From positions 1 through 64,000 of the forward strand of contig JBFLGF010000031.1 of NCBI GenBank assembly GCA_050230475.1: 64,000 nt of DNA. Reading direction: 5' to 3'. The position numbers and the translations under genes are program-made. Every line of letters starts with the position of its first letter. The stretch's first letter is position 1. This DNA is from Ancylonema sp. (Eukaryota). Shown one piece after another: positions 867 to 48,716 of the stretch. Under the pieces are notes generated by a model. That model was given only the letters and a program-made list of their open reading frames with translations. It ran no database searches and was not told where the DNA came from.

Positions 867-2048
867 TACCAGGGACAAGAAAGGGGGGGACGAAGATGAC
901 TAGACAAAGAATGTATCAATGTCTATCGAGTCGGTTGTGTTTATAAAAAGGGTTGACAAGGGTTAACATGTCCGTCATCAACAAATGGTGCCTAAAAAAC
1001 AATAATTAATTAATTTGTGCCCAAAAAATATGCCCCAAAACCATGGTTGGCCCCGTTCCAATCTTTCGATTTCCGATTCGATTCCAATCCGAAGTCAAAC
1101 CCCGGCTAAATGCCGGCTAAACTCGACACAGATCCGGCTTGTCGGATCGGACATCGGGAATCGGAAATCCGATCAATTGGGTTAGAAAAAAACTTTTAGT
1201 GCACCAAATGTGTCGTCAAAAGATTTTACTCCTGGAAAATAAAAAAAAAAACGTTGGCGTTTAAGAAACGCTCAATTTTTTTCCCCCCATATATTTTATA
1301 TTTGGATGCCCCCATCCGATAAAAATAAATCGGTTCCGATCCGGATTGGAAGTAATCGGGGATCGAGACCCAACTATGCTCAAACGAGTTGAACAATGGT
1401 GAAGGTAGGTCAAAACTAGCAAAGATGTACCTCAAGGTCCGCAGGAAAGATACATTCTTCCTAGAGCACACGGATAAATTTTGGAAAAAACAAATGACTG
1501 ATCTTTCACTTCTTGCTGCACTGATAATGGCAGGTACCAAGCATAGTTGCATCGCAATCACTTTTGTCCGATCACGGTTTACATGAGATTGGGCCCGCGC
1601 ATGGGACCGTAAATGTTTAATTTCCGCTTGATTGGGGCCAACTAGGAGAGTTATGTGCCTATATTACACCTATTTTTTTCTTGTTATTTTTCTTTTTCTC
1701 TCTACAACATTACTATATCCCGCCACGATTTGTCCTACGATTTTTGTGTCGGGGTGGGGGATCCGGGGACTTGGGGTTCGGATTTCTTAGGGTGCAGTTA
1801 CTCACACGGGTGAATTTTGTTTCTTTTGTCCAATGCTCGGATTCCGATTGTACCCCGATTGGCTCCGGGCCCGATCGCGATTGGAGGGCGTCTCCAGATC
1901 TTTCAACCGGATCGGGGACAACTATTATACAGAGTGTGCCACCATGTTCAAGCCGGCTCGTAGTCAACATAGTTCCAATCTGGTTGTCTATGTGGGTGGT
2001 CGATGTGAAATGGTTTGTTGTCAAAAAATGTTCCGTTTGGTTTTCTTT

Positions 2049-2980
2049 TGTCATGCCTGTATGAATCGTCAGCTAGAAACCCCTCTATTTTAAGCAGAAT
2101 ATCAAAATAGCCGCACCGCTATGTTTTTCCGCCTTGTCACGACTCCGCCCCCGCTCATTTCAGTCCGAGCTTCGTCGGTGACCAGCGCCCTTTAACTAAA
2201 GTTTCGAGTAGTCAACCTTTGACTAGCTCCCTTTTGTATTTGAATTGATTAGACTACGTGTCGGACTTGTCATCAATAGCAATCGTGACCGTAGCTCTTT
2301 AGATCAACAGCTCGGAATCAACTAGAGATATATGCAGCCAATTATAGCGTGCGCGCCGAGTTGATTTATATATTTCTTGCCGCGTATCCCAGCGAGCGCG
2401 CGAGTAGATTATTCGAGTTTGACAATAAAGACTCTAAAGACTCTTGTACAACTTTCAATTCTTAGCTTTCGCTGAATTTGACGTTGAAGATATTTTCCTT
2501 GCACACCATTGTTTTCCTCGACACTCTGAATTCTTTGCCTTGCGCAATCTGTGATCTTTTGCTTTCGCAACATCGTGTGTATCGAGCGTTCGCTCATTTG
2601 TGATTAATTTGCATCAAGCTGTCGCTTTGCAATTTTTGAATTACCCTCGTTACCAAAGTTATCGATTGTCTGACCTGCTGCGCAGTCAAAAATCACCTGT
2701 TTGAATTACCGAGCGTTCGCTCATCTGTGCAATCCATTCGTACATCTATTTTGTTGCTATTGACAAGCTTTGCAGAACTGTATCATAATCGATTGCTTGC
2801 TGATCAAGAATCGACGCGCTGTAATCTTGTGTCGCTCTCGTTACTTTTGAGCCGTCAAGTAAGAGCAGCGTGTGATAGCTTGCTAGCAGTGAGTAGTACA
2901 GCGAATAAAGCTCGAAAATTGCCTCGTTTGTGTGATTGTTTACAATCACTGCCGCGATTCAAGCGAGCACTGTACTCTCA
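2049..2980 (+). repeat. Repeat A1 (5' LTR lacking the B segment)
   Basis: Starts TGTCATGCCTGTATG and ends TACTCTCA; roughly 90-95% identical by eye to 9338-10268. Confidence 0.92.
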
Positions 2981-2993
2981 AATTCAGCGAAAG
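2978..2993 (+). promoter_or_regulatory. Putative self-priming primer-binding site
   Basis: TCAAATTCAGCGAAAG is the exact reverse complement of LTR-internal 2466-2481 (CTTTCGCTGAATTTGA). No TGG-initiated tRNA PBS is present. Confidence 0.7.
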
Positions 2994-3969
2994 GGTCTCT
3001 GACCACCAATTACGTGACTTCGACGGCTTTCAGTTCAAGAAAGGTACGTGAAAAGTGCAGATTTTTTTTTCCCCTACCTCTTTGCGTTGGCATAAAATCA
3101 TATATGTGCATCCAGGAGTAGCTGGAATTGATTATTTGTACAATTTGCGTGGTTTATCTGTGAAATTGCTGTGAAATTTGCGTGCTGAATTATCATCGTG
3201 AAAGCTATTTCGTGAAATTGTGAAATTCCTAGCATCTCTGTGATCTGGATTCTTGCAATCTTTGCTTTGGCTACCGTTCGTTACAGGTTGTTACTAGATT
3301 TACCGCTTTGTAACTAAGAGAACCACGAATATACTTTATAGAATTAGTTCCCGAACCTGGATCACGCAGTACCCAGCCTGTCACGCCAGTAAGGGAGGGT
3401 CAATTTCTTGCAAGTTCACTTTGTTGTTCTGTGACTTTTTCAAACACGAGAAGAAAGATTAACTATACCCTGCTCAGAAAAAATTTACCTTGCGACCTTA
3501 CGGTCCTCTCAGACTTGATTCGAATTTACCTGACCGAGCTCAATTTATTCGACATCACAGTATTTACCATTCGTTTACAGACAGTCCTACCAAGATATTA
3601 TTGTTTCGTACCAATCACTCTAGTACGTCACTCTCAAATTCAGAATATAGACACCGTATGTAATTTACTGAACAGTACCGTACTCTCGATTGACTTTCAA
3701 ATACCGTGACTATTATACAGATTGACAGTATACAATCAAGTCTCTACCACTACAAGTTGCTTCCACCGACATTCTTTTGTTGTTGAACGCACTAAGAACT
3801 GCTCACCCGGAACAATTGCACGCCTGAGAAGTATCGACAGCCATTACTCAACCATATAAACACGTTTATTAAAATAAAAAAAATAAAAAAAACCGTACAC
3901 AATCATTATTATACAAGATTTATCACAATTTCATTTAAGTAACATATACACCGTGAATTATCAAAGTTT

Positions 3970-5661
3970 ATGCCGTGGAAACGTATTAACGGAAGACTAA
4001 CGAAAATTGCCAATCTGGAGGATATACAGCAAACGGGACTAGCACTAGACATCCCTCTCGGAACGTTTACTTTAATAAACTTTTTGTTTGACAACAGTGA
4101 TTCTGAAAAGGATGGTATCAGGTTAACCAGACAGTTGTCTCAACCTAATTACTGCAGAAGTTCATATGGAAAAACACACCGAGAATTACCAACAGAAAAA
4201 TCAACCCCATATAATACAGTTCCAGTACGAAGAAATCAAAACAGCGCACCACCGACTGTATATAATTCTCCTGGATTTCGACACAACAACTATCCATCCA
4301 AAAGATTATTTGGATCAGCACCTATTACTAGGGCAACTAGCCTATCCTCAGACATGAGTTCAGATAATCCTAAAAGTCCAGATTTGACTCCGAACAAAGA
4401 AGTACCTACACCAATCCAACTACCGATTCCACCATCAACTACTCAACCGTCGCAATCTCCGCCAACACCACCGCAAGCAGTACCAACTTCTCAAAGAAAG
4501 AGTGTAAATTGGGGAGATAATATAACATCGTTACCACCAATCACACCGTATCACGGAGCACTGGGCACTACTCAAGACGAATTTATTAACTCAGTACTAA
4601 GTCATCACGAAATCCTTAATCGGGAAAAACGGACCGGCTATGTAGAGATGGATTTAGTTCGAAACCTAGGGGCTTATTGTGAAGGAGAAGCTCAACGAGA
4701 ATGGCAAAGTTTTATGACAGACCACGAAGGAGACGCCAACACAAGAGATTTACGTGAAATGCGGCGTGATTACTCTATCGATGAATTGTATTTCAGATAC
4801 TACAGATTTCATGATGGTATGACTGAACCACAGCCACCGAGCCAACCAGAACCACATGAATTACAAGCATTCATCGATGCAATTAAAACAAGATTCCGTA
4901 CCTCGTCTGCAGAATATCTGATTAAACTGAACAATATGGTTTGTTCACCAACGGATACAGTATCATCAATTTACGCAAAATTTAACGATGCACCTTACGT
5001 GATTGAAGGATCTAATGCAATGACTTCCGAACAGCTTGCACTTCGTTTACTACAACTGATTCCGTTACCGATCCAAGATCATCTTAAGAAATGGTATTTT
5101 GACACCAACAATCAACGGTTCTTTGCAAATCCACGAGACGCACCATTAACAAGAAAAGAGAACATGACAGAAGCTAATGAAAGTGAATCGTACAGGGCGA
5201 AACAAGAAGCTGACATGAGAGATGCGGGTGGAACGAGAAATTCATCCAACGCTAACATAACGAAATCGAAAAATGTTTACCAAAAGACTTATACACAGAG
5301 TACTCCAACGTACAGACCTACAGATCGACAAAATATTAATGGTGAAAGACCGCCTCCAACATGTTACAACTGCAACCAAGTCGGCCACTACAAGAAAGAC
5401 TGCAATTTACCAATGAAATCAGCAGCACCTACCGGACCTACGCAACCTTACCGATCTTCGAATCAACAAGCTAGCGGTCAACAACCTCAAGGAAATTACA
5501 AAGGAGACTCTTATGGACAACAACGAATGAATCAAGTTCCCAAACCTCGCCAGTGCGGACCTGAATCCTACACGAAGGGAGCAACATGCACTAACTGTGG
5601 GAAGATGAACCACATAGCGCAACAATGTCAACGACCACGAAACGGCCAACACTTAACGTGA
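3970..5661 (+). CDS. gag: Gag-like protein with two CCHC zinc knuckles
   Basis: 563-aa open frame containing CYNCNQVGHYKKDC and CTNCGKMNHIAQQC. The true start may be the later ATG (MSSDNPK). Confidence 0.85.
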   Translation: MPWKRINGRLTKIANLEDIQQTGLALDIPLGTFTLINFLFDNSDSEKDGIRLTRQLSQPNYCRSSYGKTHRELPTEKSTPYNTVPVRRNQNSAPPTVYNSPGFRHNNYPSKRLFGSAPITRATSLSSDMSSDNPKSPDLTPNKEVPTPIQLPIPPSTTQPSQSPPTPPQAVPTSQRKSVNWGDNITSLPPITPYHGALGTTQDEFINSVLSHHEILNREKRTGYVEMDLVRNLGAYCEGEAQREWQSFMTDHEGDANTRDLREMRRDYSIDELYFRYYRFHDGMTEPQPPSQPEPHELQAFIDAIKTRFRTSSAEYLIKLNNMVCSPTDTVSSIYAKFNDAPYVIEGSNAMTSEQLALRLLQLIPLPIQDHLKKWYFDTNNQRFFANPRDAPLTRKENMTEANESESYRAKQEADMRDAGGTRNSSNANITKSKNVYQKTYTQSTPTYRPTDRQNINGERPPPTCYNCNQVGHYKKDCNLPMKSAAPTGPTQPYRSSNQQASGQQPQGNYKGDSYGQQRMNQVPKPRQCGPESYTKGATCTNCGKMNHIAQQCQRPRNGQHLT

Positions 5662-7104
5662 CCCGTCCCTCCAATTTCATTGGATCTGCCCGCAAGACCA
5701 GATGTGCAACGCATCACGTGGAAGGACCAGCAACAACCTTATCCTAGCCTCACCTTCATGGAGAAAGAACCTGAAAAAGAAGCTGATTCAACGAAGGGGT
5801 CCCTTGACGACGACATTGACGAGTTAACCTATGCGCAGTTCCTTAACGAGGAAATTAAGATCCTTAAAAAAGGATGGCAAGAAGCGGTTAAGGTAAACAT
5901 ACCAAAACAGAAAACACTTACCCCAAGAAGATCCCCAAGAGTTGCTCAATTTGAACTACGTCGACAAACTTCAAGCTTACCAGATTCCTCCATATCACTA
6001 CCTAGACCAACTTTAACATCACCACCACCTGAATGTGACACTCAGGCATCAGAGAAAGCCACAATTACCAATCACCCTGTCACACGCAATGATGTATACC
6101 CACCAGAACATGAGGACAGAGGACGTTTCGATGTAGAAGGACCAGACTATGGAAGAAGACGTGGATATAGCGTTAAAATGCCAGAAACATGGATCCCTGA
6201 ATTCTCTGATAACATCACACGAAGCACGGTTAACATGGATGAACCAACATTCACTGACCCACCACCACCATTACCCCCCCTTCCTCAGGCACATGTAGTT
6301 ACCGACCAACTCAACACGATGCAGAGCGAGCTCCAAAAACTCGTCATCGAACAAAGCAAGGCAATCATCTTGGCACACGACCTCGTCCGCAGGCTGGAGA
6401 ACCCTTCCCCTCAGCTGTCGGCGATCCTCAAGGCCACGAAGGACACCCCGATGGCGAACACCTACAAGCCTCCACACGCAAGAAAAAAAGGTGAGCTTAC
6501 CATGGATACTTATCAAATCACCACGATTGATAATAACACTGGAATTTGTCACATCAATGGAAAAATCCCAATGAAACCGGTCATTGATTCGGGTGCACAA
6601 AATACTATGATTGGTATTACTTACCGAAAGACCCTCAACATTACCGATGAAGATTTACGACCCGGTTCACAATACACTACGGCATCAGGCGACATTCGAA
6701 CAAGCATGGGCAACACACAGGAGAAATTCCCCATTATCCTAGGAGCTGGCACACCAAATCCGACGACGGTGTGGACAGAGCTACACCTTTCCCCATCCAA
6801 AGATGTTGACTTACTTCTAGACACTGTTTTCATTGCCACACTCGGAGGCTGCATTGAAACCCGAGAAAAGAAGTTCGTTTACCGAGCTGATTGGGCTCAC
6901 GAAGGACATTGCCCCACAAGCGTTTCCATTACCGTCCAAGGACCTCCCAAGGTAACCCCACAAATACTCATGGCAGACTTCGAGGTTAAAAATCGCACTA
7001 CAAATGACATGCACCGAAACAAAGTGTACGACAACAACATTCGACAACAACCGTTACCTACTAGTGTGTTGTCCCTGCCCACACCTCAGTTACCCAGCAT
7101 ATGA
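5662..7104 (+). CDS. Polyprotein segment with retropepsin-like aspartic protease, in frame with gag after a TGA
   Basis: ICHINGKIPMKPVIDSGAQNTMI (DSG active site) followed by DVDLLLDTVFI. Same reading frame as gag. Confidence 0.75.
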   Translation, partial: PVPPISLDLPARPDVQRITWKDQQQPYPSLTFMEKEPEKEADSTKGSLDDDIDELTYAQFLNEEIKILKKGWQEAVKVNIPKQKTLTPRRSPRVAQFELRRQTSSLPDSSISLPRPTLTSPPPECDTQASEKATITNHPVTRNDVYPPEHEDRGRFDVEGPDYGRRRGYSVKMPETWIPEFSDNITRSTVNMDEPTFTDPPPPLPPLPQAHVVTDQLNTMQSELQKLVIEQSKAIILAHDLVRRLENPSPQLSAILKATKDTPMANTYKPPHARKKGELTMDTYQITTIDNNTGICHINGKIPMKPVIDSGAQNTMIGITYRKTLNITDEDLRPGSQYTTASGDIRTSMGNTQEKFPIILGAGTPNPTTVWTELHLSPSKDVDLLLDTVFIATLGGCIETREKKFVYRADWAHEGHCPTSVSITVQGPPKVTPQILMADFEVKNRTTNDMHRNKVYDNNIRQQPLPTSVLSLPTPQLPSI

Positions 7105-7378
7105 AAATCAATGAGAAAAATTGCAACATTACACATATTTACACATCAAGACAAAGAATACAAATACCGTGCATGGATGGTTACACCGTGGACTCGCACA
7201 TTCTACAATTTTCTTCAAAAAGACTTTGACGCTGCATCTCTATATATTGCACGCAAGCATGACTACCACGCAAAAAAAATGGCGTTTGACAACCTTATGC
7301 TCAGTCAAGAAAGTGAACGACTTCTAAAAAAGACGATGCTTACCGCGAAAATAGAATCACCATGGAAACCATTTTGGC

Positions 7379-8420
7379 GTGGCATTTCGTAAGACGACTT
7401 CAAATGCATTACCTCACCGGTTCGACTCATTCAACCAATATGGACTTCATGTGTGGCTACCATTTGCAGGTATCGACCTCTCCGGACTCATCATGTTGCT
7501 CAAAGGCGGATTCCGTATCTCTACACTTACCACCCAAGAAGAAGACCCGGAAGCACGTATGTCTCAACGTCGCCAAGTGAAAAGACCTTCAAACACTCTT
7601 TCCTAATCAGTTACCTAACTCTGCAGTGCATGGCTTTGATACACGAAAACAAAACGCATTGGTGAACACGACGACTACCAACATCTCCAACATGATCATG
7701 ACCCATGGACCAATCGACTTCATCTGCGGCAACTGGCACACTGAGGTCATCCGTAATGAGACACCAATTAGCACAATCAAAGATCCTCGAGTGGCAGCCC
7801 TGTTCACATTACTAACACTCGTTCAACAACTTCAAAAGATGCAACCTTTCATTCCGACATACATGTTTTACAATCATTCACGACTAACTGATTATCCTAT
7901 GTGGTCAAGAGAACTAGTGCATGTGGCATCACAATTTCTTGGAAAAATGATAACAGTCAACGCTTTACAGCTTGGTTCTCACTTTTACCGACAAACCCAT
8001 ATCTAGCAAAATACCTTTCCAAATGGACATCTTCGAGCAGCTATTCCCGACTACGGATGGATTTCCAAAATCGAGCGGTTACTCAACCCAGGACACCAGG
8101 AACAAGAAAAAGGTGCCAACACGTATAAGTACGAAAGCAACTATTACCAGTCCCGTGATGAGAGGCAATTCATGCCACCAATCAATCCTTACCAAGACAA
8201 TTCTGACTATGTGTTGACATGGAGACAACATCTACAACAGTACACGTACGGCGAAGGGATGTTGAAGGACAACACCAACAACCACTGGGTGTCACCAACA
8301 GCTGGCGAGCGTGCAAGATTTTTACATTACAGCTTGGACGATGTATCCATTCCTGCACACCCGGATACCAATTACCTGAACAAACGTAACTGCCAACTCC
8401 TGAAGAATAATGGACAATAA
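7379..8420 (+). pseudogene. Cytosine-5 DNA methyltransferase-like domain, frameshifted, catalytic motifs substituted
   Basis: Motifs in canonical order: I VWLPFAGI; II EEDPEAR; IV GPIDFICGNWHTE (no PC); V DPRVAALF; VI YMFYNH (no ENV); VIII NALQLGSHFYRQTHI*QN; IX GEGMLKD...PTAGERARFLHY; X RNCQLLKN. Confidence 0.7.
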
Positions 8421-9180
8421 AATATGTGCTGGGTATGGAGGCTTACTTGGTGCGTTTCATCGACAATCCCCAAATCTGGGGGGGAGCATCGCTACAACAT
8501 CAACAATTACATCTACATCCAGCTCTGTTTCGGACTCGGAGTCTGAAACTTTTTAAACCAGTTCTGAAAACGATTACCCTTTCTCATTCCCAGTACAAGT
8601 GGACCACATGGAGGAAGACACCAATACAATTTCACCTGGTTTCGGCTCCACAATTTCTTCATCCACAAATGCCACTACCATCCACGACGACAATAACAAC
8701 AAGACGCTACCAGATTTACCTTACAACCTTCCGATTGACTTGAAAGATCCCCATCCCCAACACACTGTTCAAATGATACATTACCAAGATGACACTATAC
8801 TACGTTTATGTCCACCACAAGTTACCAAAACTTTCAGCTCTGAAAATACCATCAAAGAAATACCATCAGAGAAATACCATCAAACCCAATCAAGACAACG
8901 TGTGATGGAAAATACTTGTTCATCGAAGGCATTTATGGTTTTGCAAAGCACAAGTTACCTTTAACACGGGAATCTGAATCCAAAAAAAAATCCCATCCAT
9001 TTACTTCTGCTACAATGTCTGCACACCCTGATGCTGTGATGACTACACATCCAACAATATCGACAACTTGTCATTTTTCAGCTTCTGAGAGCAACCCTTG
9101 TGCTACATCATTACTGTGATCCTGATCACTTTACCCTTTTATGTTGATTACCCATATGTGAACGCATAGCTCTTCAATCT

Positions 9181-9192
9181 GGGGGGGGGGAG
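9181..9192 (+). promoter_or_regulatory. Polypurine tract
   Basis: GGGGGGGGGGAG immediately upstream of repeat B1. Confidence 0.7.
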
Positions 9193-10268
9193 TTACGATA
9201 TTCCAGCCTCCTATCTGCACCTCCACTACATCGACAAGACCCCTTTTAGTCGATACTTTGAGTGCGATTACCTCTTCATCGACTGATTCCATCATCGATG
9301 ACCCATTTACCCTACCGATCTCATCCGGCACGTCACCTGTCATGCCTGTATGAATCGTCAACTAGAAACCCCTCTGTTTTTATCAGAATATTAAAATAGC
9401 CGCACCGCTATGTTTTTCCGCCTTGTCACGACTCCGCCCCCGCTCATTTTATTCCGAGCTTCGTTGGTGACCGGCGCCCCTGTTATTAAGTTTCGAGTAG
9501 TCAAACTTTGTCTAGCTCCCCTTTGTATTTGAATTGATTAGACTACGTGTCAGACTTGTCATCAATAACAATCGTGACCGTAGCTCTTTAGATCAACCGC
9601 TCAGAATCAATAGAGATGTCTGCAGCCAATTATAGCGTGCGCGCCGAGTTGATTTCCTTGCCACGCGTATCCCAGCGAGCGCGCGAGTAGAATATTCGAG
9701 TTTGACAATAAAGACTCTTGTAAAACTTTACAATTTTCAAATCTCAGCTTTCGCTAAATTTGACGTTGAAGAGATTTTACTTGCACACCATTGTTTTCCT
9801 CGACATCTGAATTCTTTGCCTTGCGCAATCTGTGATCTTTTGCTTTCGCAACATCGTGTGTATCGAGCGTTCGCTCGATTGTGATTACTTTGCATCAAGC
9901 CGTCGCTTTGTAATTTTTTAATTACCCTCGTTACCCAAGTTATCGATTGTCTGACCTGCTGCGCAGGCAGAAATCACCTGTTTGACTTACCGAGCGTTCG
10001 CTCATCCGTGCAATCCATTCGCACATTTATTTTGCTGCTATTGACAAGCTTTGCAGAACTGTATCATAATCGATTGCTTGCTGATTAAGAATCGACGCAT
10101 CTGTTGCTGTAATCTTGTGTCGCTCTCGTTACTTTTGAGCCGTCAAGTAAGAGCAGCGTGTGATAGCTTGCTAGCAGTGAGTAGTACAGCGAATAAAGCT
10201 CGAAAATTGCCTCGTTTGTGTGATTGTTTACAATCACTTCCGCGATTCAAGCGAGCACCGTACTATCA
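9193..10268 (+). repeat. Complete 3' LTR = B1 (9193-9336) + A2 (9338-10268)
   Basis: B1 matches 10270-10413 and A2 matches 2049-2980. Follows the PPT and ends in CA. Confidence 0.88.
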
Positions 10269-10269
10269 T

Positions 10270-10413
10270 TTACGATATTCCAGCCTCCTATCAGCACCTC
10301 CACTACATCGACAAGACCCCGTTCAGTCGATACTTGGAATGCGATTACCCCTTCATCGACTGATTCCATCATCGATTACCCATTTACCCTACCGATCTCA
10401 TCTGGCACGTCAC
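10270..10413 (+). repeat. Repeat B2 (terminal copy of the LTR 5' segment)
   Basis: TTACGATATTCCAGCCTCC...GGCACGTCAC, a ~144-bp direct repeat of 9193-9336. Confidence 0.9.
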
Positions 10414-11971
10414 TTATGCTCCCAAGGTTTGTTCTATTTTGTCCACGACCTTGGGGTTGTGACCTTGTCGTTTTCGCCCTACTTCTCACAAAGTGATTGT
10501 GAGTCCCATGGGCTTCAATAACCTTCACACAAATCAGGAATGAGATTCCAATTTACTTTGTCCATCATGTAGACACACAATGTGTAGATCTCACGTAACT
10601 ACTTCCAACCGTAGGTGCAAATACCGATAGACGAATGAACAAATCGATTCACATCCACGTATCTCTATTCCGCACGTGTGTTATATCAATTGTGCGCGAG
10701 CCGACTGTGCTGATAATCCATCGGAGTTGCGTCACACCTTCGTCTAATTCTTATAATGATTCTTATCATGTTTCTAGATTTGGTAAGTACTTTGGTGCTT
10801 GTGAGCAAGTAATCTTGTCATCTGCAAAACACGACAAAGACCTACGCACTTCATCGTTTTGCGAGCACGGTCAAAATCGTCGGAGTTGATTTGATATGTT
10901 TCCTTTGTTGTTCGTCTATTTTTTTTGCCACGTGGAGGTGAATAATGTCATGATGAGAAAAGAAACTAGACTAGTAGCCTTTGTACTTCGAGCGAGATAT
11001 GTTAAGAACTTCTAGGTAGGTATAAAGAAGGAAATGTTTCCTGTCGAGGTTGTTAACATTGCCATTGTGAACCTTGGAGTACTTGTGGGACTTGTGTGCC
11101 AACGAGTATGTGCTAACACGACCAAGACTTTTTTATAATAAGCATCAAGGGCAAGGCAACATGTTTCAATGCTTCGATGCAAAATCCAACATGTGGGTAT
11201 TTAGCAATGTTGGGGAAATACAACAATCCCAGTTGTAGTGGGAGGACCAACACCCGATCCATAAAGTTCAAATTTTGTGTCCTCAATATTGCGTTGGCCA
11301 AATCTAGAGGTAGGACCGACTGTGTGTCCGGATTCATATTGTGGCTCCGTGGCTACACGAAACAATTCCTTGACCCATTAGACCACCCACACAAAAATAT
11401 AGTTCTCACTTCCCATAGTGGACACAATTTTGACACGGTACGCACAACGCAATACACAATCAATATGCGGGAGTCACACAATACGCCGTGTTTGGCGTAT
11501 GTACGCCATATATGTCATTTGGGACATTGTATTGTTATACCGAACAAAGTGGAAATTAGAGTCATGGAAATATGTTACAAATATGCGATTGTGGCACGTC
11601 TTTTGATCCATTGTAGCTAGAGGGCACAAAGGAGGCATTGTTAGGAGGAGAGATTGAGGGACAAAAACATCGGTACAATGAACTTTGCGTGCCAAAATTT
11701 CTCGTATGTCCTAACCTAATGTATCTATGTGAATATTTACAGCTGACACTTGTTGTACCATTGAGCTACTCCGTCCAATTCAACCTCAACTTCCATCCCA
11801 CCCAAAAAAAAAACACAAAAATAGGAGATAATCTCGACCAAAGCGTTCACTAATTCATCAAATAAACTACCACCCTTGTATCCTACGTAGCGGCGAAATA
11901 TCCAACCCTCTATAAAAAATCCTACGCTCCGTAAAAAATGTTCAACGCTTGATACGAAACGCGACACTGGC

Positions 11972-33488: not shown

Positions 33489-34209
33489 CTGTGTCTATCG
33501 CAATCGCATTCCGGAGCAGGTTTGCGAAGAAAAGTGCAAACAGCATTCAACTGCACTGACTGGGACCGACCATGCTAACTTGAGGTTTTCAGAGCTTTTG
33601 AAACCATACGCATATATCTCAGCATCAACACTGTCAGAAAAGCCCGTGTGTACCCCTCCGCATCTTCCTGTTCTCGTCCATCATCCGTAATGCACCCAAC
33701 GGTATTGAATAGCGGTCAGCAAGCTTCTTTCTGAGGTGCGAAAATGGGAGGGATGAGGGATCGCAGAGCCCGGGAGCCCGTGAGCTCGTTTGCCCGCGAT
33801 CCTGTGGAAATCCGAGCCCGTGAGCCCGCATGTCTCTTGACGGGCTCGGAGGCAGGCGAGCTCACGATTTCTGGTATCAATGGGCTCGGGATTCATAAAC
33901 GCTCATGCAATAGGTTCCCTCATGCGGGGCTCAAATGGGCTCATTCGGGCTCATTTACTGGTGGAATACGGTTTGAAGATTCGACATAACGTGTACAAGT
34001 GTCCGTAGAGACTACTAACATATTCCGAACACGTAAATACTGCGAACTAGGTAAGACTCACCCGTAGTCTCACATTTCGTAGGTTTTGTAGATTCTGGAC
34101 GCCCTCACGTAGTGTGAGTCACAAGGCAAACGACCGCCACTGTATATAGGGGGATATGAGGTATGCTTGATACATTGATTAATTTCATTGACTTGCCACC
34201 TCCTTCTTG

Positions 34210-35144
34210 CATAGTTGCACGAACCGGCTGTTTTTTTTTTTGGGAACCGGTTCCGAGATGGAACCGTTTCGGAACCGGACGAACCGGAATATTTTTAGGG
34301 TTATACTCCTTCCCGCGGTAGAACATTTTTTCCCTCCCAAAAAACGTACGCGGGGGAAATAAATCGTTGCAAATGTTCATGTTGGTAACTCCACGTCCAT
34401 TTCAGACGCTAAAATTGTGAAATATTTCATCGGAAAAATATGGCGTGGCCATTGTTAGTTTCAATTTGCTTTATTTCGCGCCATGGCAGGACGTGGTGCA
34501 TTTTCATTGGCAGAAAACAACACGCGACCTTCCACTATGAAAATATTTGGAGAAGCAAGAAACGTGAAAGGTAGGAGAATTGAGTAGGAAGAGAGTGGTT
34601 ATAAATGGAGTGCCGCAACTTTGAGCAGACGATCGAAAATAAAAAATAAATGGAAAGTTAAATCAAATGTCGAGTGGCAATACAAAATGGGTGATAGCAT
34701 CATGTTGCAACATTTTCACATGAAATTAAAACACGGAATGGGAATGAGGAAATATGTATGGAATGAGGGTTACTGGATAATACAAAAAAGAGTGAAACTG
34801 AAATTGGAATTTGTTATATAACTACTATTACATGAACACCAAGAAAGTGTGCAGAGAAGTGAGCAAAACAGAGAAATGCACTGAAAGGTGGCAGATACAT
34901 TCATGAGAAAAATCGTTTTGAGTTTTTTCACTATGTGTATCATTTGTTTGATACTTTTTTTTGGATAGACCATGAAGTGGTACACAAAAATAAACTATTT
35001 GTCGTTTTTTTCCGAGCCATATAGCCCCTCAAAATGCCGTTTAAGTGAAAAAACCCCTAAATCCCGCGGTTCCGAACCGCGGCCACTTTTGTCGGTTCCA
35101 TATAAGATCCGGTTCGGAAACGGTTCGGAGTTCGTGCAACTATG
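34210..35144. mobile_element. hAT-type MITE, family 2
   Basis: TIRs CATAGTTGCACGAAC / GTTCGTGCAACTATG; 8-bp TSD CCTTCTTG/CCTTTTTG (one mismatch). Inverted copy at 42595-43520. Confidence 0.9.
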
Positions 35145-38100
35145 CCTTTTTGTGAGAGACAAACAAATTTATTTTTTGCCATGGCGGATGAGGATAGCCC
35201 ACTCTTTCATTCCGAAACGGATTCACACAAGTGGTGAATTGCACAAAACACGGTGGCAAATTAGATGATGCAAGAGTGAATGAAAGGTGTCTATGGGATC
35301 ATCATTTCCCTCACTGTCCCCATTCCAGATTATGTGGAGGGTCACGCAAAGGCAAAATCGATATCTTAGTAGCAACATGTAAGGAAGTTGGTGTGTATGT
35401 ATGTGTATTGGGGTATGAGGGTGTGTGTACGGAAATGCATTGGATATTGAATTGAATTGAATTGAATTTTGTGTTGAATTGAATCATATTCAATTCAATA
35501 CAAATTACATCCATACGTGACATGTCACATATGGGACATGCGACATGGGACTCGCATATTTATACTCGTACTGAAACAAAGAACATATGGCATTATACAA
35601 ACTTGGGTCCCTGACAAGGTTGGCGGGACGGTTCTCGCATTTGTCCCGGACGCCACTTGTTGAGGACATGTCCCGAGGATCCCGAACATGTCTGGTGCCA
35701 ACTATGAAAAATATCAAACTACATTATTTTTCCATTTAACATTTTTTAGAGACACATGAGTGGGGGTTTTCATGACATGACACTTATATAATATTTGGTA
35801 CGCGCATCGTATCTTGCTCACGTACAACAACGCCACTGCTCGCCTAGGCGATTCACTTAGTCGTTTTCATGGGAGTTGTTTTACAATGTGTCCGGGTCCG
35901 AGACGTGTCCAGGCTAGGACATGTCTCGGACATGTCCGGAGACTTCCAAGGATGTCCCGGTGTTATGATTGCATTCATATGCAAAGAGCGGGGAACTACA
36001 AACCGTTCCATTTTTTCCCATGACCACTTGAATGAAGAAGTAGAGTAATGAGGCCGCTTTCTTTTCCTAGAGAGCCCGTCACGAGCATGAGCCCGTTGTG
36101 AGCCCGTCGTGAGCCTAGAGCCCGTTGTGCCCGAGATAAACGCATTCCAACCATGTCGAGACCGGTAGGATTGTGCTCCGTCAAAATGCATGTGCCGGTC
36201 CATATCTTTGTAGTCACTAATGGTGACTTACTATTGCGAATAACATAAAAACAACAAGTTGCAAAAACATGGTCATGGTTCATAATGAAAAGAAAAAATG
36301 TGTGATAATATCATTATCCATCAACGTAATCCTTGTTAAATGTCATCACTCGCATAAGATAGATTGCGCAACTTGCATGCAAGTTAACCCCTTGTTCAAT
36401 ATATCACGAGTGACTCAATAGTTGGGTTAGTTGGAATAACACATCATACAAGTATCATCAAGCATACTCTCACTACACAATAAAACTATTCGGAGTGAAA
36501 TATGTTGTGGGGCAATTTGCACCCCAATACGTCAAATTGTCTAGTTCCCGTCTTCAAAAACTAAAAAGAAAAACTACCCAAGAATTGGAGAATAGCGACG
36601 GGCACAATGTCTTGGTACACATGTACTCTTTTTATCACCCCGGAGCATCTTGTAGCCATGTAGTATTATGTCAAAAACTCCAAAAACCGACAAAATGGAG
36701 ATACTAACGAATGCAACGAAAACGAACATGAAGTCCACCAAAACATAGGACTTGGATGCTCCCCGACCCAGAATTTCAAGTTCTTACCAATTCTTTAGAA
36801 TTTTATGTGAGGACTATCATAGATCCGAATTCGGGATCATCCAATTTTATCACTCCAGAGGTCCCCAACATTAATTACATGAATTCCCTGATTTGCCGCG
36901 ATAATTTCCGCTCTTTGATACCACGCTAAGCTGACTGCATTCACCACGAATCACAACGAAGAACCTTACATTTGAATCACTATAGCATGAAACAGGTGAT
37001 GTTGATGCTAATGTTGATGCTCATGATGAGTTAAAGCTCGTTACAAGAACAACAAATAATAAGCCTTCCGTGGCCTTGCAAAAAAATAACTACACAGCAA
37101 GAATGACAACGTGTAATTATTTAGATATCATAAAAGTTTTTGGAAACAATCGAAGCCATCAAAAGAGTAAAGCAAGAACATAGATTTCGAGAATAAAGAG
37201 AAATTGCAAATGGTTTATGGAAATCATACCGAATGTTTTGGAGGAGGCTCCACCTCAACTCTGATACGCAATACTTCATGGACTGGTGGCGGCCTCTGTA
37301 CCGTTTTCTTCCGCCCAAACATCTGTCAGCGCGCTCACAGAGTTCATTTTTTAGATTTGTAAAGAAAGGAAATTAGCCGGAGCATGCCATGATGCAACAA
37401 GAGAAGGAATCGAAAATGGATCACACGTTTCTGAACGGTATCATTTGCTACATGGGAATAATAGAAGAACTCGACTAGGTGTTCAGATACACGATACGAC
37501 ACCAAAACCAACACAATTTAATAACATGTATAGTATCGCTGCAGCAATGACATCATTTTATTACTGTATACATGACCGCATGCTCGAAAACGCCTGAAAT
37601 GATTATCATCACATGTCTCCAAATTCAAGTTGATCTTTCTATCATGCTAGATTCTGGCACGAGATTTTTTGTCGACACATGTCGTTTCAGCTAGGGAAAA
37701 GAAAATAGGGATCTGATCCCAGCACGCCGCCGTCTTTATGAAAATAGGCATCACAAGCACCACAAATTCACCGCAGAAGCATAGAAACAGTTGATATCTT
37801 CTTCACCCAAAATAGATGCTTCCCAAAAAAAAAGTCACCCTGGCCATCAAAACTGCCGGCAGGGCAGCCCTGCAGATGAATATAACGCAGCAGTAAACCA
37901 ATGCCCTGTTTTATAGCCACAAGAGGCCCAAACTGTCGAGGATAGAGTACGAGCGTATCAACCTTGCTTAGCGTGGTCTTCAGTCACTCCTTGTGGTCCT
38001 CTGCGGATGCGTTCATAAATTCGTGGAGGTGCTCCTTCATCTTGCCTACAGTGGATGTAGGCTCTGGTCGATCACAACCCTTGGCCCCAGCGTCGGGTTC

Positions 38101-38555
38101 TTCACGAGGGATGGAATTCTCCATGCCTGCGGAAACCGTATGGCCGCCCAGCTCCCAAAAATGTATTCGACTTCACAGAATATATCTGCAGGTTGTGCGG
38201 CAGTGTGGCCATGCCCGCCGTTTGGAAAGTTCTCCGAAGCTCACAGCTCAGGGTGGTGTCGCCTACTGCGGTAGGCGACACTGGCCTACCGCAGTGGCCA
38301 CCGCGGCCCACTCATGCAGTAGCGAGTAGGGAATTGTTACGACTGTACCGGCTGGTGATCTGGCCGTTAAAAACTCGCCGTCGATTACCCGGAACAATGT
38401 CGGTTTATCGTGGCATAATCGCCGCTGTACGTGAACCAGCGTCAACCGACCAGGGAGTCCAACGAAACCCTTTGGGCTCCGGACTCCTCCGGAGCCGACT
38501 CCATGACCTGGTCCAGGATCGCGGCTCCGAGCTCATTTCAGAGATTCAGAATGAG

Positions 38556-38690
38556 CCAGAGCTCCAGAGCTCCAGAGCCGAGAGCGCAGAGCGCAGAGCC
38601 GAGAGCCCGTACCGCAGAGTCCAGAGCTCCAGAGCTCCAGAGCTCCAGAGTTCCAGACCTCCAGGGCTTCAGAGCTCCAGAGCTCCAGAG
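38556..38690. repeat. 8-bp tandem repeat (CCAGAGCT)n, degenerate
   Basis: Directly visible. Confidence 0.85.
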
Positions 38691-39697
38691 CCGGGAGACC
38701 AGACCTCCGGAGTGCCTTTGTAGCGGAGAGAGGAGAGCTGAGTATGCCAGACTAATATGCACTTAAAATAAATGTGGTAAAATGAGCCACGACCTGATCG
38801 AAGTGGACAAGGCGAAAGAATGCTTACGGAGGGCGGTGCCTTAGGCAGAGTCGTCCAACTTATTAGACAAGGCGCGCGAGTTGCGTGTGAAGTCTACAAA
38901 TCTAGCGGAAGTCTACCAGCTCATCGGCAGGGCGTTACTCAGCAATTCCGATGATGACGAAGCGAGATTTGCATCATTGCTTTCCCTCGGAAAAGCAGTG
39001 TGATTTTGCGCAGCATCAATTTACAATCCCGCCCGCTTGACTTCCAATGATATATCTCAAGTAGGTGGGCTGAAGAACGGAACTGTGAGATGTCTTGCGT
39101 TCATGTACCAAAGGAGAACTGGAAAGCGGCCGGGATTGACTTGATTTTGGACCGCGATTTGATTTTTTTTTTACGAAAATGATATATACACGGGTCTGGC
39201 CCTGATCGATGCTTCGTTGCTGAGCATTAGATAGAGCTCTACTGGGAGTGGGACGTGGAAGGAAATGGTGCAAAGGATGCGTGCATTACCACCTAGAAAG
39301 TGCCTTTGATAGCGACAATAGGATATGTAGGATCAAGTTAGAAAAATTAAGATTGGGTAAGCAAACGAAGAAGCTAGACTCCTCCAATGCCTGGTCTCCG
39401 CTACACCAATTGCGCACAGCTAGCTCGGAGTAATCGGAGTCAAGACAAAAGTACCGTACTATAAAATAAAAAATAATGCACCTCATTTCGGACCTCCGAG
39501 CCAAGCTCCGAGCCCGGAGCACTAGATCTGGGCTCGGAGCTTTCCCGGAGTCCGGCTCGGAGCCCAACGCTTTTTTCATGGATTGTGACTTTGGATTGAA
39601 TCATGGACTCCGAGCCCGAATCTGAGCTCGGATCCGAGCCCGGATGTTACGCTCCGACATGGGCTCCGACGTTTAGCTCAGAGCCGGAGGAAAAAGC

Positions 39698-40554
39698 GAG
39701 CTCGTACTGCCAAAACATTGTTCTTAATGCCAAAGAAGATTCCCCCGACAGGACTTACGGGGGACCGTAAATGCAGCTCGAAAGGACTTGGTGGCTTGTG
39801 GGCCGTCGACCTGTAGTACGGCCTACTTTGTCGAGATTCAGTTGTAGATATTCTAGATCTACGGGCCGCATACAAATGTTTTCCGTCCGCCTGTGCGACG
39901 TGGCCCCTTCAGAAGCCTGTACTGTTGTTCCCAGCCCACGTCCTCGAGATGTAGCAATCGGTGAGCCCACGCCCACCCAACTTCTATGGACTGCGGGCTT
40001 TCAGAGCTCGCAGCCCAGATTGCAGGCAACGGCCCAGCTCGGAGCCCGCAGCCCAGCCTTGCAGCATGCAGTCCGCAGCCCAGCTTTCAGGCCGTTATTT
40101 TGCGCCGCAAGCTGGGCTCCACCGAATCTTCAATTCAGGCATAATTCTTTGAGCTCTGGGCTGCATCCGATTATTTGGGCTGTGGTCTGGGCTGCCAGCT
40201 GCATTCTGCGAGGCTGAGTTGCGGCTGCTATCTCGACTGCGGGCTCCCGCTACCCGCAGCCCATAGAATTTGGGTGGGCTCACCAATCGCTAGATCTCGA
40301 GGACTTGGGCCGGGAATTTGAACAACGGTACAGGCTTTTGAAGGGGCCACGTCGCGCACAGGCGGACAGAAAACATTTGTTTGCGGCCCGTAGATCTAGA
40401 ATATCTACAACTGAATCTCGACAAAGTAGGCCGTACTACAGGTCGACGGCCCACAAGCCACCAAGTCCTTTCGAGCTGTATCTACGGTCCCCCGTAAGTC
40501 CTGTCGGGGGAATCTGCTTTGGCATTAAGAACAATGTTTTGGCAGTAGGAGCTC
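39698..40554. mobile_element. Foldback element with ~320-bp terminal inverted repeats
   Basis: TACTGCCAAAACATTGTTCTTAATGCC... at 39705 is mirrored by ...GGCATTAAGAACAATGTTTTGGCAGTA ending at 40547; arms are near-identical. Confidence 0.85.
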
Positions 40555-41926
40555 CCGAGGAAAAACACCCCTTTGGGCTCCGGGCTCAATGAGCCCGGAT
40601 TTTGGGCTCAGTGGGCTCATTGGGCTCCGGGCTCCCCGCACACTAGACCCACGGCCTCTCCCGATTCGCTTTCTTAAACTACCTTCCTTGGCTGCCACGA
40701 TTTATCCGCATGCATACCCCACCTTTCTTCAAAAATTTGCGATGAATATGTTTCTATGATATTCTTCTCTATGCTATGCGGCAAAGCAAAAAAAAAAGGT
40801 TTTTAATCCAACCTCTTTTGATGTTTGCACGTGCTTTCTTGCCATATTATTGTTTCATATACTGTTTTATATTCTGGCGTCATAATTATTTTTCGTTTTT
40901 TTTTTAGCAAGAGAGTTAGAAATTCAGATCACACAGCGTGTCTCCGCTTTCAATTTGGTTGCAAATTCGCTCAAGTCGGATAACTTGAAGGGCTGTAGAT
41001 GACATAGCCCATAGTGAAAGGTCCGCTGGCAGCATCAGGGTGCAGCAGAGGCCGAATTGAGTGGAAAGGGAGGCTTCCAAACCTCATGCTTCGTTTCCCT
41101 CATGTGGCAATATCGTTACACGCGTGCAGTCCGGGCTATCTGATTATTTTTCATGGCAAGTTGTTAACGACCAAATCACCAGCTGGTACGAGAGTGGCCG
41201 ACTGGGTGCGGATAAGGAAAAGTTGATGGTATAGAGATCGATGACGTCACTACACGTGCGGCTAGTAAGGCAACCTCAAACAAGCTAAGGCCACATGCGG
41301 ACACGTGAGGATAGAGATCCGAACACGTTCCGAACAACATAGAAAGAAAGTGCTAACTACTTGCACCACAACACACATAGCATCACACCACACCACAACT
41401 CACATGCCTAGCGAGACTACAAACATGCAGTTTGGTTTTACTACTCTCCAAGGCACTGGAAGCCGTTGGTCGCCTAGGAGCGCCGTGAGATGGCGACCTA
41501 TTGGGCTAATCGGTAGTCCAGCCAACCTCTAAGCACAGAACAGCGCAGCGGTATCAAACACAGAGCAATGCAAGACACGTGTGAGGCGATGATAGAAGTA
41601 CCGGGAAGTTATCAGAAAAGTTAGGGTACAACGCTACTCCTGGCCCTGTTCTAGTGCAGTGGGTGAGGCACCCCCGCACGTGCGAAATCAGCGGCAACTC
41701 TAAGAGCGTAACGTTTACGATGAAATCTACCCTAAACCAATCAGAGGCCACGGCCACCAATCGTGATCTGACTTGCAAGCCCGTGGTACACGGTGAACAT
41801 GTAACTCCTACAGACACATAAAGTAACGCCCGGCTAAGGCGGAGAGCCACTAACCAATCGGCTATAACGGGGGCGTATCCGCTATAAGCAACCGATTCCT
41901 ACCGCTACGACCTAGTGGGTGCGGAT

Positions 41927-42570
41927 TAGCGTTATGAAATTACGGTATTTTTGGGTTAGGTTGTAGTAATTACGGTGCTTTTACGAATAACGTAAGATTA
42001 CATCTTTTTTTTGGTAAATGACCGACAGGCGAAACGTGAAGTGTAAAACATGGGTAAATTACACTTACCAGTAATGTAGATGATATCCATGGTAAATGGT
42101 AATAACGGTAAGATATTTAAGCACGAATTTACCGTAAATGACGATTGCGAGGACATAACATCGACCTTGAATTGACAAATGACGTTTCGCCAGCCGTCAG
42201 ATTTGATGAGGTTCAAGTCCGTTGAAGCCATTCACGGTATATTATCATCCATGGTAACAGACTACTAACACGGTTTTTAAAACCCCCCCTTTTTTTTTCC
42301 TTTCTTTTTTTCGTTTCCCCCCCCCCCCCCCCCCCCCCCCTTTATATTAAATCAATATTTATATATCCATATTTATATATTTAATATTTATTAATTTATA
42401 TTGCTGAGCTTTACCGGATATTTCGTTTTTAGGAATTTTGGCTCTTGTAACGTGTAATTTACCAATTATGCGTAAAACGAAAAAAAAACAGGTATTTTTA
42501 CGTTTTACGTTACGTAACATCTTACATACGAGTGTAAGTGCAAGGTGTAAACGTAACATTCACAACGCTA
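41927..42570. mobile_element. hAT-type MITE, family 1 (second copy)
   Basis: TIRs TAGCGTTATGAA / TTCACAACGCTA; perfect 8-bp TSD GTGCGGAT. Confidence 0.9.
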
Positions 42571-42579
42571 GTGCGGATA

Positions 42580-43791
42580 TACCGTACTGGGCACCATAGT
42601 TGCACGAACTCCGAACCGTTTCCGAACCGGATCTTAGATGGAACCGGTTCCGACAAAAGTGGCCGCGGTTCGGAACCGCGGGATTTAGGGGTTTCACTTA
42701 AACGGCATTTTGACGGGCTATATGGCTCGGAAAAAATCGGCAAACAGTTTTTTTATGTGTACCACTTCATGGTCTATCCAACAAAAATGTCAAACAAATG
42801 ATGCACATTGTAAAAAAACTCAAAACGATTTTTATCATGAGTGTATCCACCTGCTTTTGGTGCATTTCTCTATTTTGCTCACTTCTTTGCACACTTTCTT
42901 GCTATTTATGTAAAAGTAGTTAGACAACCAGTTTCACTCTTTTTTGAATTATAAAACAAATTCCATTCCACATATTTCTCCTCATTCCCATGCCGTGTTT
43001 TAATTCCATATGAAAATGTTGCGACATGATGTTGTCACCAGTTTTGTATTGCCACTCGACATTTGATTTAACTTTCCATGTCTTTGTTCTTTTCAATCGT
43101 ATGCCCAAAGCAGCGGCACTCCATTTATAACCATTCTCTTCCTACTCAATTCTACTACCTGTCACGTCCCTTGCTTCTCCAAATATTATCATAGTGGAAG
43201 GTCGCGTGCTGTTATCTGCCAACGAAAATGCACCACTTTTTACCATGGCGCGAAATAAAGAAAATAGAAACTAACAATGGCCGCGCCATATGTTTCTGAT
43301 GAAATATTTCATAATTTTAGCGTCTCAGAGTGACGTGGAGTCACCAACATGAACATTTTCAACGATTTATTCCCCCCGCGTACGTTTTTTGGGAGGGAAA
43401 AAATGTTATACCGCGGGAAGGAGTATAACCCTAAAAATATTCCGGTTCGTCCGGTTCCGAAACGGTTCCATCTCGGAACCGGTTCCAAAAAAAAAAAATC
43501 AGCCGGTTCGTGCAACTATGCTGGGCACCGTAAATGATTTCTGTTTTTTTCAAAACGAATTAATTTGTTAATGATTTGTAAGAAAGATTCCGGGAATCCG
43601 GTAGTTATTATTGATGATTTTTAGCAATGATTTTTCTGGTAACGTACATACAAAATTCAAAACAAATCCAATAGTGGTATTAATATCAATGATTTTTGGT
43701 TTATGATTCCGACCTCATAGGTATTAATATAAATGATTGATTTCGGGTTTCAATAATTAATTAAAAATCATTTACGGTGCCCAGTACGGTG
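42580..43791. mobile_element. Tc1/mariner-like MITE interrupted in its left TIR
   Basis: After removing 42595-43528, the TIR ACCGTACTGGGCACCGTAAATGATTT matches the right end. TA on both flanks. Confidence 0.8.
42595..43520. mobile_element. hAT-type MITE, family 2 (second copy, inverted)
   Basis: Same TIRs as 34210-35144; perfect 8-bp TSD CTGGGCAC. Confidence 0.92.
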
Positions 43792-44060: not shown

Positions 44061-44682
44061 ATTATTATTTTTTCCCCCTATCTATGCCATAGATAGGGAA
44101 AACTTCGGGTGCCATAGATTCTATGGCACCCGACGATTCATAGCTTTTTGGAAAAACATGTATGCTAGAGGACCCAACCGCCACGACAAGTTCCGTAAAG
44201 CGTCAGGTTGCTTGAGTAATTGGAATGGACGCGGGAAAAACTTGTGCTGCAAAAAAAACTTGTGCGGAAGCATCCAGGACACAGTCGCGTCCCAGACCGT
44301 CCGGAGATCTCCGGACGCGTCCGGGCCTGGACCTGTCCCGGACGCGTCCTGGATCCGGACGCCTCTGCCAAAATCTGATATCCATATGTTCGAAACCCCC
44401 AGGTTTATGTACCTTCAGAATGACAACCCTTTTTTTTTTTTGAATTTTAGTTGCATTCCGGACCGTCCGGGGATCTCCGGACGCGTTCGGGACGTGTCCG
44501 GAGCCGGACACGTCCCGGACGCATCCAGGATCCTCGTGTTCGGAACGCAATTATGGTCCATGCCGTCCAAGTCCGTTAAATGTGTAGGTGCCACAATGTC
44601 CGAAAATGATGGGGGGACCCACATGCTAACAATTCTAAACATTTCACAATGTGGTTCTCTTCCCAAAATGTTATGGACTTTC

Positions 44683-47600: not shown

Positions 47601-48716
47601 CTGCCTTGGCTTGAAAATTTTTGTTGCGCTGACCACTTAGCATAGTTTGCCTCTACAACTAGTGCCTCAGCATCTTTGATCCTTTTCTTTCTCTTGTCGT
47701 CCAACTCATCTATTCCCATCTGCCCCCAGATCCAGCTGATCTCAGGTGCCTCTTTCTGTCTATAGTAAAGCTTCTTCAACATGCCGTATGTTGTTCTTGA
47801 CATGCCAACAAAACAATGCCATCACCTTATCTTCTGCGCTGACTGGAAATTTTTGATGTACACACTCTCTGATGATCGACAGAGAAGTATTCTTGATTTC
47901 TCTGACTGGCATCTTTTCAGATCTTGAAAGAGTTCGGCTTTTCTTTTGCAATCTGTCGAAGTTCTGGAGACACCTTGTCATACTCCTCTGTCAGATAGTC
48001 CCACCGCATCGCCTTTGGATCTCGTTCAAATTGTTCAAGTGATGTAGCGATGTCGTCACTAACAAATTGCATGAGTAGCATGACTGCCTTCTTTGATCTT
48101 TTAAGGAAGCTTTTGACATCAAGTGTATACTGCTCCATTTTTGCTTCATTTGTTGGCCAGTGTTCATCATCATATCTGGCTGTAACCTCAGTTGGAATAG
48201 TCTTTGTTCCTGCAGATCTCAAGACACTCAGCATCATCAAGAGTAGCTGAGGCCTTAGATCTCCATGTTTGAAAGGTAACTTTATCTCCATCCAGAATGC
48301 AGTACTGTGCTCTGATACCACTGTGAGTGCTTTCTTCTGCCATCGATGCAAGAATAAAGCACAATTCTCTTGAATCGACAGATCACGTCATCACAAACGT
48401 TGACACAACAAAAGTGCAAGTTTGAAGTAGAAAAGTCTGATTACAGAATTCAGCATACAAGTTCAGACCTAGTACAGTCAATTGTTGCCTGATCAAAGAA
48501 TCTACTGGTATCGAAACTACTTCGTCAACTGCCAATCATATCTAAGCATTCTGCCACATCAACTAGTTCTTATCGACTCTTGTGCCAGATGGCCAAGTAA
48601 TCATTGAAACAAGGACATCGGCCTGCAGCCGGCATTTGCTGAATAACGACAAAACTAAAGCTAAATTCCCGGTATTGTTAAAAACGACAAAAGTTCACAG
48701 CCCCTAAAAACTAACA
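44683..48716 (-). mobile_element. Ty1/copia LTR retrotransposon, internally deleted
   Basis: LTRs at 44683-45106 and 48322-48716; 5-bp TSD CTTTC; Met-tRNA PBS TGGTATCAGAGC (48320-48309); PPT next to 45107. Domain order gag-PR-INT-RT-RNase H. Confidence 0.96.
45315..48300 (-). pseudogene. Disrupted copia gag-pol
   Basis: Zinc knuckles (YTCGETGHYSRNC, CRYCGAIGHVKFTC), protease-like FDDGSSHH, LHTRLGH...CKLGK, VDL..P, YRVWDP, GSLLYL..TRPDL, GYSDASH, GDNESS, HKRSKHIEIKYH. Contains stops and frameshifts. Confidence 0.9.

Follow-up and report, generated by a model that had tools for sequence, protein, structure and literature searches.

A Gypsy-type retroelement family with split repeats that likely inserts from a two-LTR circle cut at an internal CA-NN-TG site

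Circles carrying two long terminal repeats (LTRs) are usually seen, for LTR elements and retroviruses alike, as dead ends or side products. According to the published work cited below by PMC number, which is covered here in part, foamy virus integrase can cut a palindromic LTR-LTR junction (PMC1180852), and cleavage of circle junctions has been described for the integrase of HIV-1 (PMC4372172). Priming on the element's own RNA occurs in Tf1 and Tj1 (PMC4600332) and also in plant Tcn1 (PMC6317226). Direct repeats split as A1-B1-A2-B2 are the published layout of PAT, Ngaro, and VIPER (PMC4157794; PMC6681497), and VIPER and TATE are without a protease (PMC6681497). An element combining such a layout with Gypsy domains and a Dnmt3 appears in de Mendoza et al. 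2018, in the legend of Fig. 4 (PMC5890265). Here we analyze a retroelement at positions 2049-10412 of a 64,000-nucleotide (nt) stretch of DNA from Ancylonema sp. (positions 1 to 64,000 of contig JBFLGF010000031.1, assembly GCA_050230475.1), hereafter the window. It belongs to a Gypsy-type family with fixed TG...CA ends that likely inserts from an end-joined two-LTR circle, cut by a DDE integrase at an internal CA-NN-TG site, a reading to which we give a probability of about 0.7.

The element runs in the order A1, internal region, G-run, B1, A2, and B2, and the repeat alignments bear out the A-B-A-B arrangement proposed in a preliminary description of this DNA. Pairwise alignment of A1 (2049-2980) with A2 (9338-10268) gives 872 identities, 45 mismatches, and 29 gap columns, and 136 of the 144 bases of B1 and B2 are identical. 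Divergence is about equal in the two pairs (4.9% for A, 6.2% for B), and neither repeat occurs again in the window. The coordinates first given for A stand, and contig ends shift those of B to 9192-9335 and 10269-10412, with the repeat ending in GTCA and not GTCAC.

Four public contig sets contain the family (X1 to X4, from three samples and two studies). X1 and X2 represent one sample, possibly the source of the window itself; X3 and X4, from the other study, contain the family but do not cover the flanks of the window locus. The summed depth of X1 contigs is 120-134 over the outer flanks and reaches 8,000-167,000 within the element, and only this step at the borders is used, as summed contig depth is not a copy number. 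Ends were mapped on 9140-9400, and the following contig counts are among the loose-end rows listed. In 40 contigs of X1 and 30 of X2, an unrelated flank passes into A exactly at its first base, 9338 (agreement 0.35). At the other side, the last base before an unrelated flank is 9335 in 26 contigs of X1 and 28 of X2, and 9336 in another 14 and 13, respectively (agreement 0.36-0.42). Base 9336 reads otherwise in 34 X1 contigs and base 9337 in 11, and because both vary among copies, 9336-9337 is a 2-nt spacer and B ends in CA; the single-nucleotide spacer originally described must thus be widened by one, as the larger contig class, leaving behind 9335, also indicates. The contigs leaving behind 9336 (14 of 40 in X1, 13 of 41 in X2) are best read as flanks starting with C; for comparison, the C content is 0.23. 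In the largest flank classes listed, the spacer is kept on neither side. Copies thus break at fixed bases of the B/A junction in X1 and X2, a point that the preliminary description had singled out for checking. The whole element reads TGTCATG...CACGTCA, with the 5′-TG...CA-3′ ends of Ty3/Gypsy elements, and its internal junction reads CACGTCA-NN-TGTCATG. The two termini form an imperfect inverted repeat, with 7 of the first 10 bases matching. No terminal inverted repeat (at most 5 of 12) is seen at the ends that reverse transcription would define, the start of B and the end of A.

With the element ending at 10412, its flanks are CTTT and CTTA, a match of three bases in four (chance 0.057), and duplication lengths of 2, 3, 5, 6, or 7 base pairs (bp) fit worse than 4 bp. 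At 5% divergence, a genuine 4-bp duplication has a mismatch 19% of the time, and the flanks may therefore be a worn 4-bp target duplication. Together with the complete 4-bp duplication of a relative described below (L011/L012), this leaves the first impression that target-site duplications were lacking without support.

It could be argued that the locus is a one-off rearrangement or assembly error in an ordinary LTR element. The whole copy is spanned by no long read or contig, and X1 and X2 possibly come from the window's source sample. However, public contigs cross the B/A junction (9227-9395 and 9279-9394), and the end of A is joined to the start of B in seven X1 contigs, so that the A|B join is not private to the window assembly. 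In addition, dozens of contigs with other flanks begin and end at the same bases, and the layout recurs in a family without other repeat similarity. Fixed ends and recurring layout refute such an accident as a family-level explanation, and we regard it as extremely improbable. The A-internal-B-A-B layout is real and family-wide.

By the established rules of LTR replication, each terminal repeat of the complementary DNA (cDNA) of this element would open with B and close with A. The signals for reverse transcription in the window agree with this unit. Positions 2978-2993, behind A1, are an exact 16-nt reverse complement of 2466-2481 in A1; the longest self-complement among 6,175 control positions is 11 nt, and folding predicts pair probabilities of 0.97-1.0 for this pairing. 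ARAGORN found no transfer RNA (tRNA) genes in the window. Bracketed by this predicted primer site and the G-run before B1, the LTR as defined by reverse transcriptase (RT) is, by sequence, B+NN+A, and its left cDNA end is GTT..., without TG. The break would sit in U3, because it lies upstream of the predicted RNA start. On both counts, an LTR made of B plus A and an opening inside U3, the preliminary description anticipated our reading; the self-priming site was absent from it. B2 lies beyond the RT unit, out of reach of normal copying from RNA. Even so, B1 and B2 are about as old as A1 and A2. B must therefore be placed anew behind A at each insertion, which requires joining of the two cDNA ends.

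The following route would account for these features. RNA would start near 2466 in A1 and prime itself at the site after A1, and ordinary LTR reverse transcription would then yield a linear [B-NN-A]-internal-PPT-[B-NN-A], where PPT is the polypurine tract. The left end of this cDNA, GTT..., would not be an integrase end. Joining of the blunt cDNA ends would give a two-LTR circle and, with it, the A|B join at 10268/10269. Integrase would nick after CA on both strands of one CA-NN-TG site, with loss of the 2-nt spacer, and strand transfer would leave A-internal-PPT-B-NN-A-B with a 4-bp duplication. For the window copy, the integrase would likely come from an intact partner. The observed layout, the fixed ends, the spacer loss, and the junction and integrase found in relatives form the basis of this route; its circle and cleavage steps we infer from them. 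More broadly, and with somewhat less confidence, we favor the view that a two-LTR circle is the obligatory substrate in a widespread Gypsy clade, with both integrase attachment sites inherited mid-LTR as a head-to-head palindrome.

The window copy has a single frame from 3943, with a Gag containing two CCHC knuckles, a stop at 5659-5661 that differs in the family's other copies in public contigs, and then an aspartic protease. Behind it lies the remnant of a C5 cytosine methyltransferase, a domain missing from the preliminary description, with stops and frame changes; its catalytic PC and ENV motifs are lost, and in relatives the domain is Dnmt3-like. No tyrosine recombinase was found in 14 frames of the window copy. 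Without RT, RNase H, and integrase, this copy is non-autonomous and needs enzymes in trans, as had been supposed. In each of the four runs, contigs depart from A at 2965 or come in at 3401, and the other sequence that they carry there is a shared one; further contigs enter at 9150. Depth is about tenfold higher over the repeats than over the coding part. The breaks at 2965, 3401, and 9150 may reflect subfamilies sharing the repeats, one of which is possibly the intact partner. A second copy of the nucleotides around the polypurine tract occurs upstream at 8473-8484, and single contigs in X1 and X2 jump from 8484 to 8557 or 8571; this copy may be the scar left by loss of the RT-integrase part.

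Among 1.84 billion representatives searched, there were 100 matches, including a Gag-protease-methyltransferase protein of 1,438 amino acids (aa) and proteins of Closterium. An alignment of five Closterium proteins led to CAI7758131.1 (P0106), which has CCHC, methyltransferase, RT, RNase H, H2C2, and rve domains. We also fetched 18 metagenome loci with a methyltransferase alignment. RT, RNase H, and integrase are present in P0106 and in the loci L002, L003, L012, and L016. L002 has two long frames, a Gag-protease-methyltransferase of 1,369 aa and an RT-RNase H-integrase-PHD of 1,047 aa, and because it has no additional open reading frame (ORF) longer than 169 aa, it leaves no room for a recombinase; L003 resembles it, with one frame break. 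The first frame of L002 matches the window in the methyltransferase (E 5e-11), the protease (9e-7), and the knuckles (3e-4). The best PDB match of the relatives is Ty3 Gag-Pol (E 4.4e-98), and their methyltransferase, which ranges from intact to decayed in the group, matches PF00145 and, in PDB, DNMT3A. None of the 33 ORFs scanned, of 100 listed for the relatives, contains a recombinase or Rep family. The B-end DNA pattern had no match in metagenome contigs, and viral contigs contained no relative of the Gag frame.

Of the 18 loci, L002, L003, L012, and L016 extend beyond the integrase, and all four have the junction CACGACA-NN-TGTCAYG, 78-117 nt after the G-run and with the spacers GT, GC, AT, and AC. 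The pattern was derived from three sequences (the window, L012, and L016), and L002 and L003 then proved to contain it as well. Outside the junction, the window repeats barely align with those of the relatives (scores 23-29). L012 and L016 read PPT-B-NN-A-B-flank. The 2,988-base overlap of L011 with L012 is identical throughout, whereas about 15% divergence separates other copies there; A1 is supplied by L011. The joined L011+L012 copy is bordered on both sides by an exact 4-bp duplication, TGTG (chance 0.007), if the first bases of A1 are placed by alignment. Domain order and the junction suggest that the window element is linked to these relatives.

These results bear on a second explanation, in which a tyrosine recombinase or HUH enzyme of another element integrates the circle at the B/A junction, as in PAT or Ngaro. 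The published layout of such elements, the absence of an integrase from the window copy, and the imperfect duplication would all agree with it. However, it is at odds with the TG...CA ends, the lost spacer, and the unrelated flanks, as well as with the exact duplication in L011/L012 and the rve integrase encoded by relatives with the same junction; moreover, neither the 33 scanned ORFs nor the space left in L002 provide the enzyme. For the relatives, this route is largely refuted, and overall we judge it very unlikely. The same observations support the earlier assignment of the element to the Gypsy type rather than to PAT or Ngaro, in line with its Gag and protease, and leave the hint at a recombinase-like enzyme that accompanied it without support.

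Several further features of the relatives deserve mention. A PHD finger follows the integrase in L002, L003, and L012, at the position of the chromodomain in chromoviruses, and may guide target choice. An in-frame TAG separates the methyltransferase and RT frames at L002:5083-5091 (followed by CAG TTA) and L003:4661-4669 (followed by CAA TCA). Both fit the readthrough context CARYYA, so that Pol is likely a product of stop-codon readthrough at these loci. In L006:1388-2205, L014:773-1582, and L009:3750-4190, the L012 family's 3′ part is inverted beside the methyltransferase, a rearranged subfamily. Finally, a methyltransferase motif reads GWEC in the Closterium proteins P0105 and P0106, compared with GWPC in P0016 and L002.

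A number of points weigh against insertion from a circle by a DDE integrase. A symmetric circle predicts that about half of the insertions read A-B-A-internal-PPT-B, which was seen in none of five sequences, three of which reach the right flank and two of which are possibly collapsed contigs. The duplication at the window is only three in four, and the contigs entering the flanks of the window locus have 27 repeat bases, fewer than the 31 required by the bridging rule. The exact duplication belongs to one copy, whose A1 starts with TC instead of TG and whose A copies differ by 15% and B copies by 7%. The self-priming complement is weaker in L011, L012, and L016, at 10-13 nt where the longest control is 11 nt; in L002 and L003, whose A1 is incomplete, none was found. 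With the RT-RNase H-integrase of a relative as query, six frames of the window copy gave no remnant of these enzymes below E 1. No intact partner was found, and word-indexed homologue searches with the protease region and the methyltransferase remnant gave no matches, which is weak evidence. A protease tree (16 rows, no outgroup) has no supported joining of the window to L002, L003, or L012; the window element groups with unnamed fragments.

The single layout in five of five sequences would be explained if the same integrase and internal site acted without a free monomer circle. The A|B join would then arise on linear DNA, when RT jumps end to end between templates, through head-to-tail dimers, or by copying through the internal junction as a template, and integrase would cut out A-internal-B-A-B; ends, spacer loss, and duplication would be the same. 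B1 and B2 do not share their first base in any of the three copies compared (window 9192/10269; L012 7605/8058; L016 4824/5238), and this difference may be an untemplated base added at the join, which would suit the linear route, or the result of decay at a methylated site. However, the A|B join contains no extra bases in any of these three copies, five sequences are too few to establish an asymmetry, and the route requires RT to act, or dimers to form, in a way not shown for this group. We therefore consider a linear intermediate unlikely, though a serious alternative, and retain the two-LTR circle as our preferred substrate. The features of the element are collected in Table 1.

Table 1 Features of the window element and its borders
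Feature	Position	Strand	Basis or remark
Left half of possible 4-bp target duplication, CTTT	2045..2048	+	3/4 match to 10413-10416, chance 0.057
Repeat A1	2049..2980	+	begins TGTCATG (left integrase-type end), ends CA; would comprise the remainder of U3 together with R and U5
Predicted self-primer and RNA 5′ end	2466..2481	+	exact reverse complement of 2978-2993
Predicted primer-binding site, self-priming (Tf1) type, directly at A1 end	2978..2993	+	16-nt complement; mechanism PMC4600332
Gag frame	3943..5658	+	core 4627-5106, CCHC knuckles 5359-5403 and 5587-5631; Pfam PF00098 E 6.4e-10; relatives' profile E 7.8e-07
Aspartic protease (6511-6885, DSG motif), same frame continued	5662..7101	+	Pfam PF13975 E 1.3e-05 (below gathering score); relatives' profile E 7.2e-27
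Decayed C5 cytosine methyltransferase	7463..8336	+	three-relative profile E 5.5e-12 (7560-8336) and E 0.13 (7463-7582); Atlas lead 0.85
Second copy of 12 nt around polypurine tract, without B after it	8473..8484	+	sequence
Polypurine tract G10A, directly before B1	9181..9191	+	sequence; same arrangement in four relatives
Repeat B1	9192..9335	+	starts GTT, ends CACGTCA; probable first part of U3
Head-to-head junction CACGTCA-CC-TGTCATG, 2-nt spacer 9336-9337	9329..9344	+	putative integrase substrate
Repeat A2	9338..10268	+	4.9% different from A1
Repeat B2	10269..10412	+	adjoins A2 end (putative join of two cDNA ends); ends CACGTCA (right integrase-type end)
Right half of possible 4-bp target duplication, CTTA	10413..10416	+	same flank comparison

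The window comes from an intron-containing eukaryote, with exon pieces of glycerol kinase, DUF1681, LSM, and Rpb4 genes. It also contains an ordinary Copia element on the minus strand (44682-48715), with two whole LTRs that are 85% alike and matches to Gag, pre-integrase, and SH3. A 9.3-kb stretch (34209-43521) lies between 940-bp inverted repeats (88%) and includes an 860-bp palindrome at 39698-40554; its scanned ORFs have no Pfam match, and it is possibly a non-autonomous DNA transposon.

The closest described system is KnitGypsy-Dnmt3 of Klebsormidium nitens, which shares with the family Gypsy domains, a Dnmt3-like methyltransferase, and DIRS-type A-coding-B-A-B repeats (PMC5890265). The DIRS-like layout is found in the window and, with integrase, in L011/L012 and L016, and the methyltransferase forms part of the polyprotein (a remnant in the window). 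In contrast to KnitGypsy-Dnmt3, compared here by description only, the window copy has no RT and integrase and has lost the catalytic motifs of its methyltransferase. The parts of PMC5890265 covered contain no end sequences, priming, junction, duplication, or mechanism, no K. nitens sequence is among the matches of the relatives' search, and in the literature searched, which leaves most subscription journals and Repbase outside, the name KnitGypsy is confined to that paper. The same literature yielded no paper on permuted or split LTRs with an integrase or on this mechanism. The proposal of an undescribed retroelement group thus holds for the mechanism, which is apparently absent from print, and fails for the layout, already stated for KnitGypsy-Dnmt3, whose unexplained arrangement is thereby offered a possible mechanism.

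Compared with Ty3/Gypsy elements in general, the window element has a CCHC Gag and an aspartic protease, TG...CA ends, a site for predicted priming after the 5′ repeat, and a polypurine tract, but neither RT-RNase H-integrase nor two whole LTRs, its repeats being split as A ... B-A-B. It works like a Gypsy element and is, by structure, not a canonical member. Tf1/Sushi and the plant Tcn1 chromoviruses are likewise of Gypsy type, with a primer site complementary to their own 5′ repeat and no tRNA (PMC6317226; PMC4600332), but carry a complete LTR on each side and, in most cases, a chromodomain, whereas the repeats are split here and the relatives end in a PHD finger. Structure-based LTR finders require whole paired LTRs (PMC6317226) and would miss the group or place its bounds wrongly. 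PAT, Ngaro, and VIPER share the A1 ... B1-A2-B2 layout (PMC4157794; PMC6681497), but they encode a tyrosine recombinase, whereas the relatives described here encode a protease and a DDE integrase and the family has TG...CA ends and loses the spacer; split direct repeats thus do not identify tyrosine-recombinase elements.

In foamy virus and HIV-1, a DDE integrase also cuts a palindromic circle junction of the CA-N-TG type (PMC1180852; PMC4372172). There, however, integrase cuts where the cDNA ends have been joined, on a side path (as stated for HIV-1), whereas the window family inherits its site within U3, at a distance from the join, and would use this route as its main one. If this is true and every insertion carries the trace of a joined cDNA, circle-based integration by a retroviral-type integrase becomes directly testable, with a 16-bp substrate defined by sequence. 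The paste-in transposition of IS3, IS30, and IS256 offers a further parallel, as a DDE enzyme nicks head-to-head ends across a short spacer in a circle and a target duplication results (PMC7780238). In these bacterial elements the transposase makes the junction anew from donor DNA, whereas here reverse transcription would copy the junction within the repeat. The family would then be a eukaryotic retroelement counterpart of paste-in transposition, with a DDE-integrase origin for split direct repeats.

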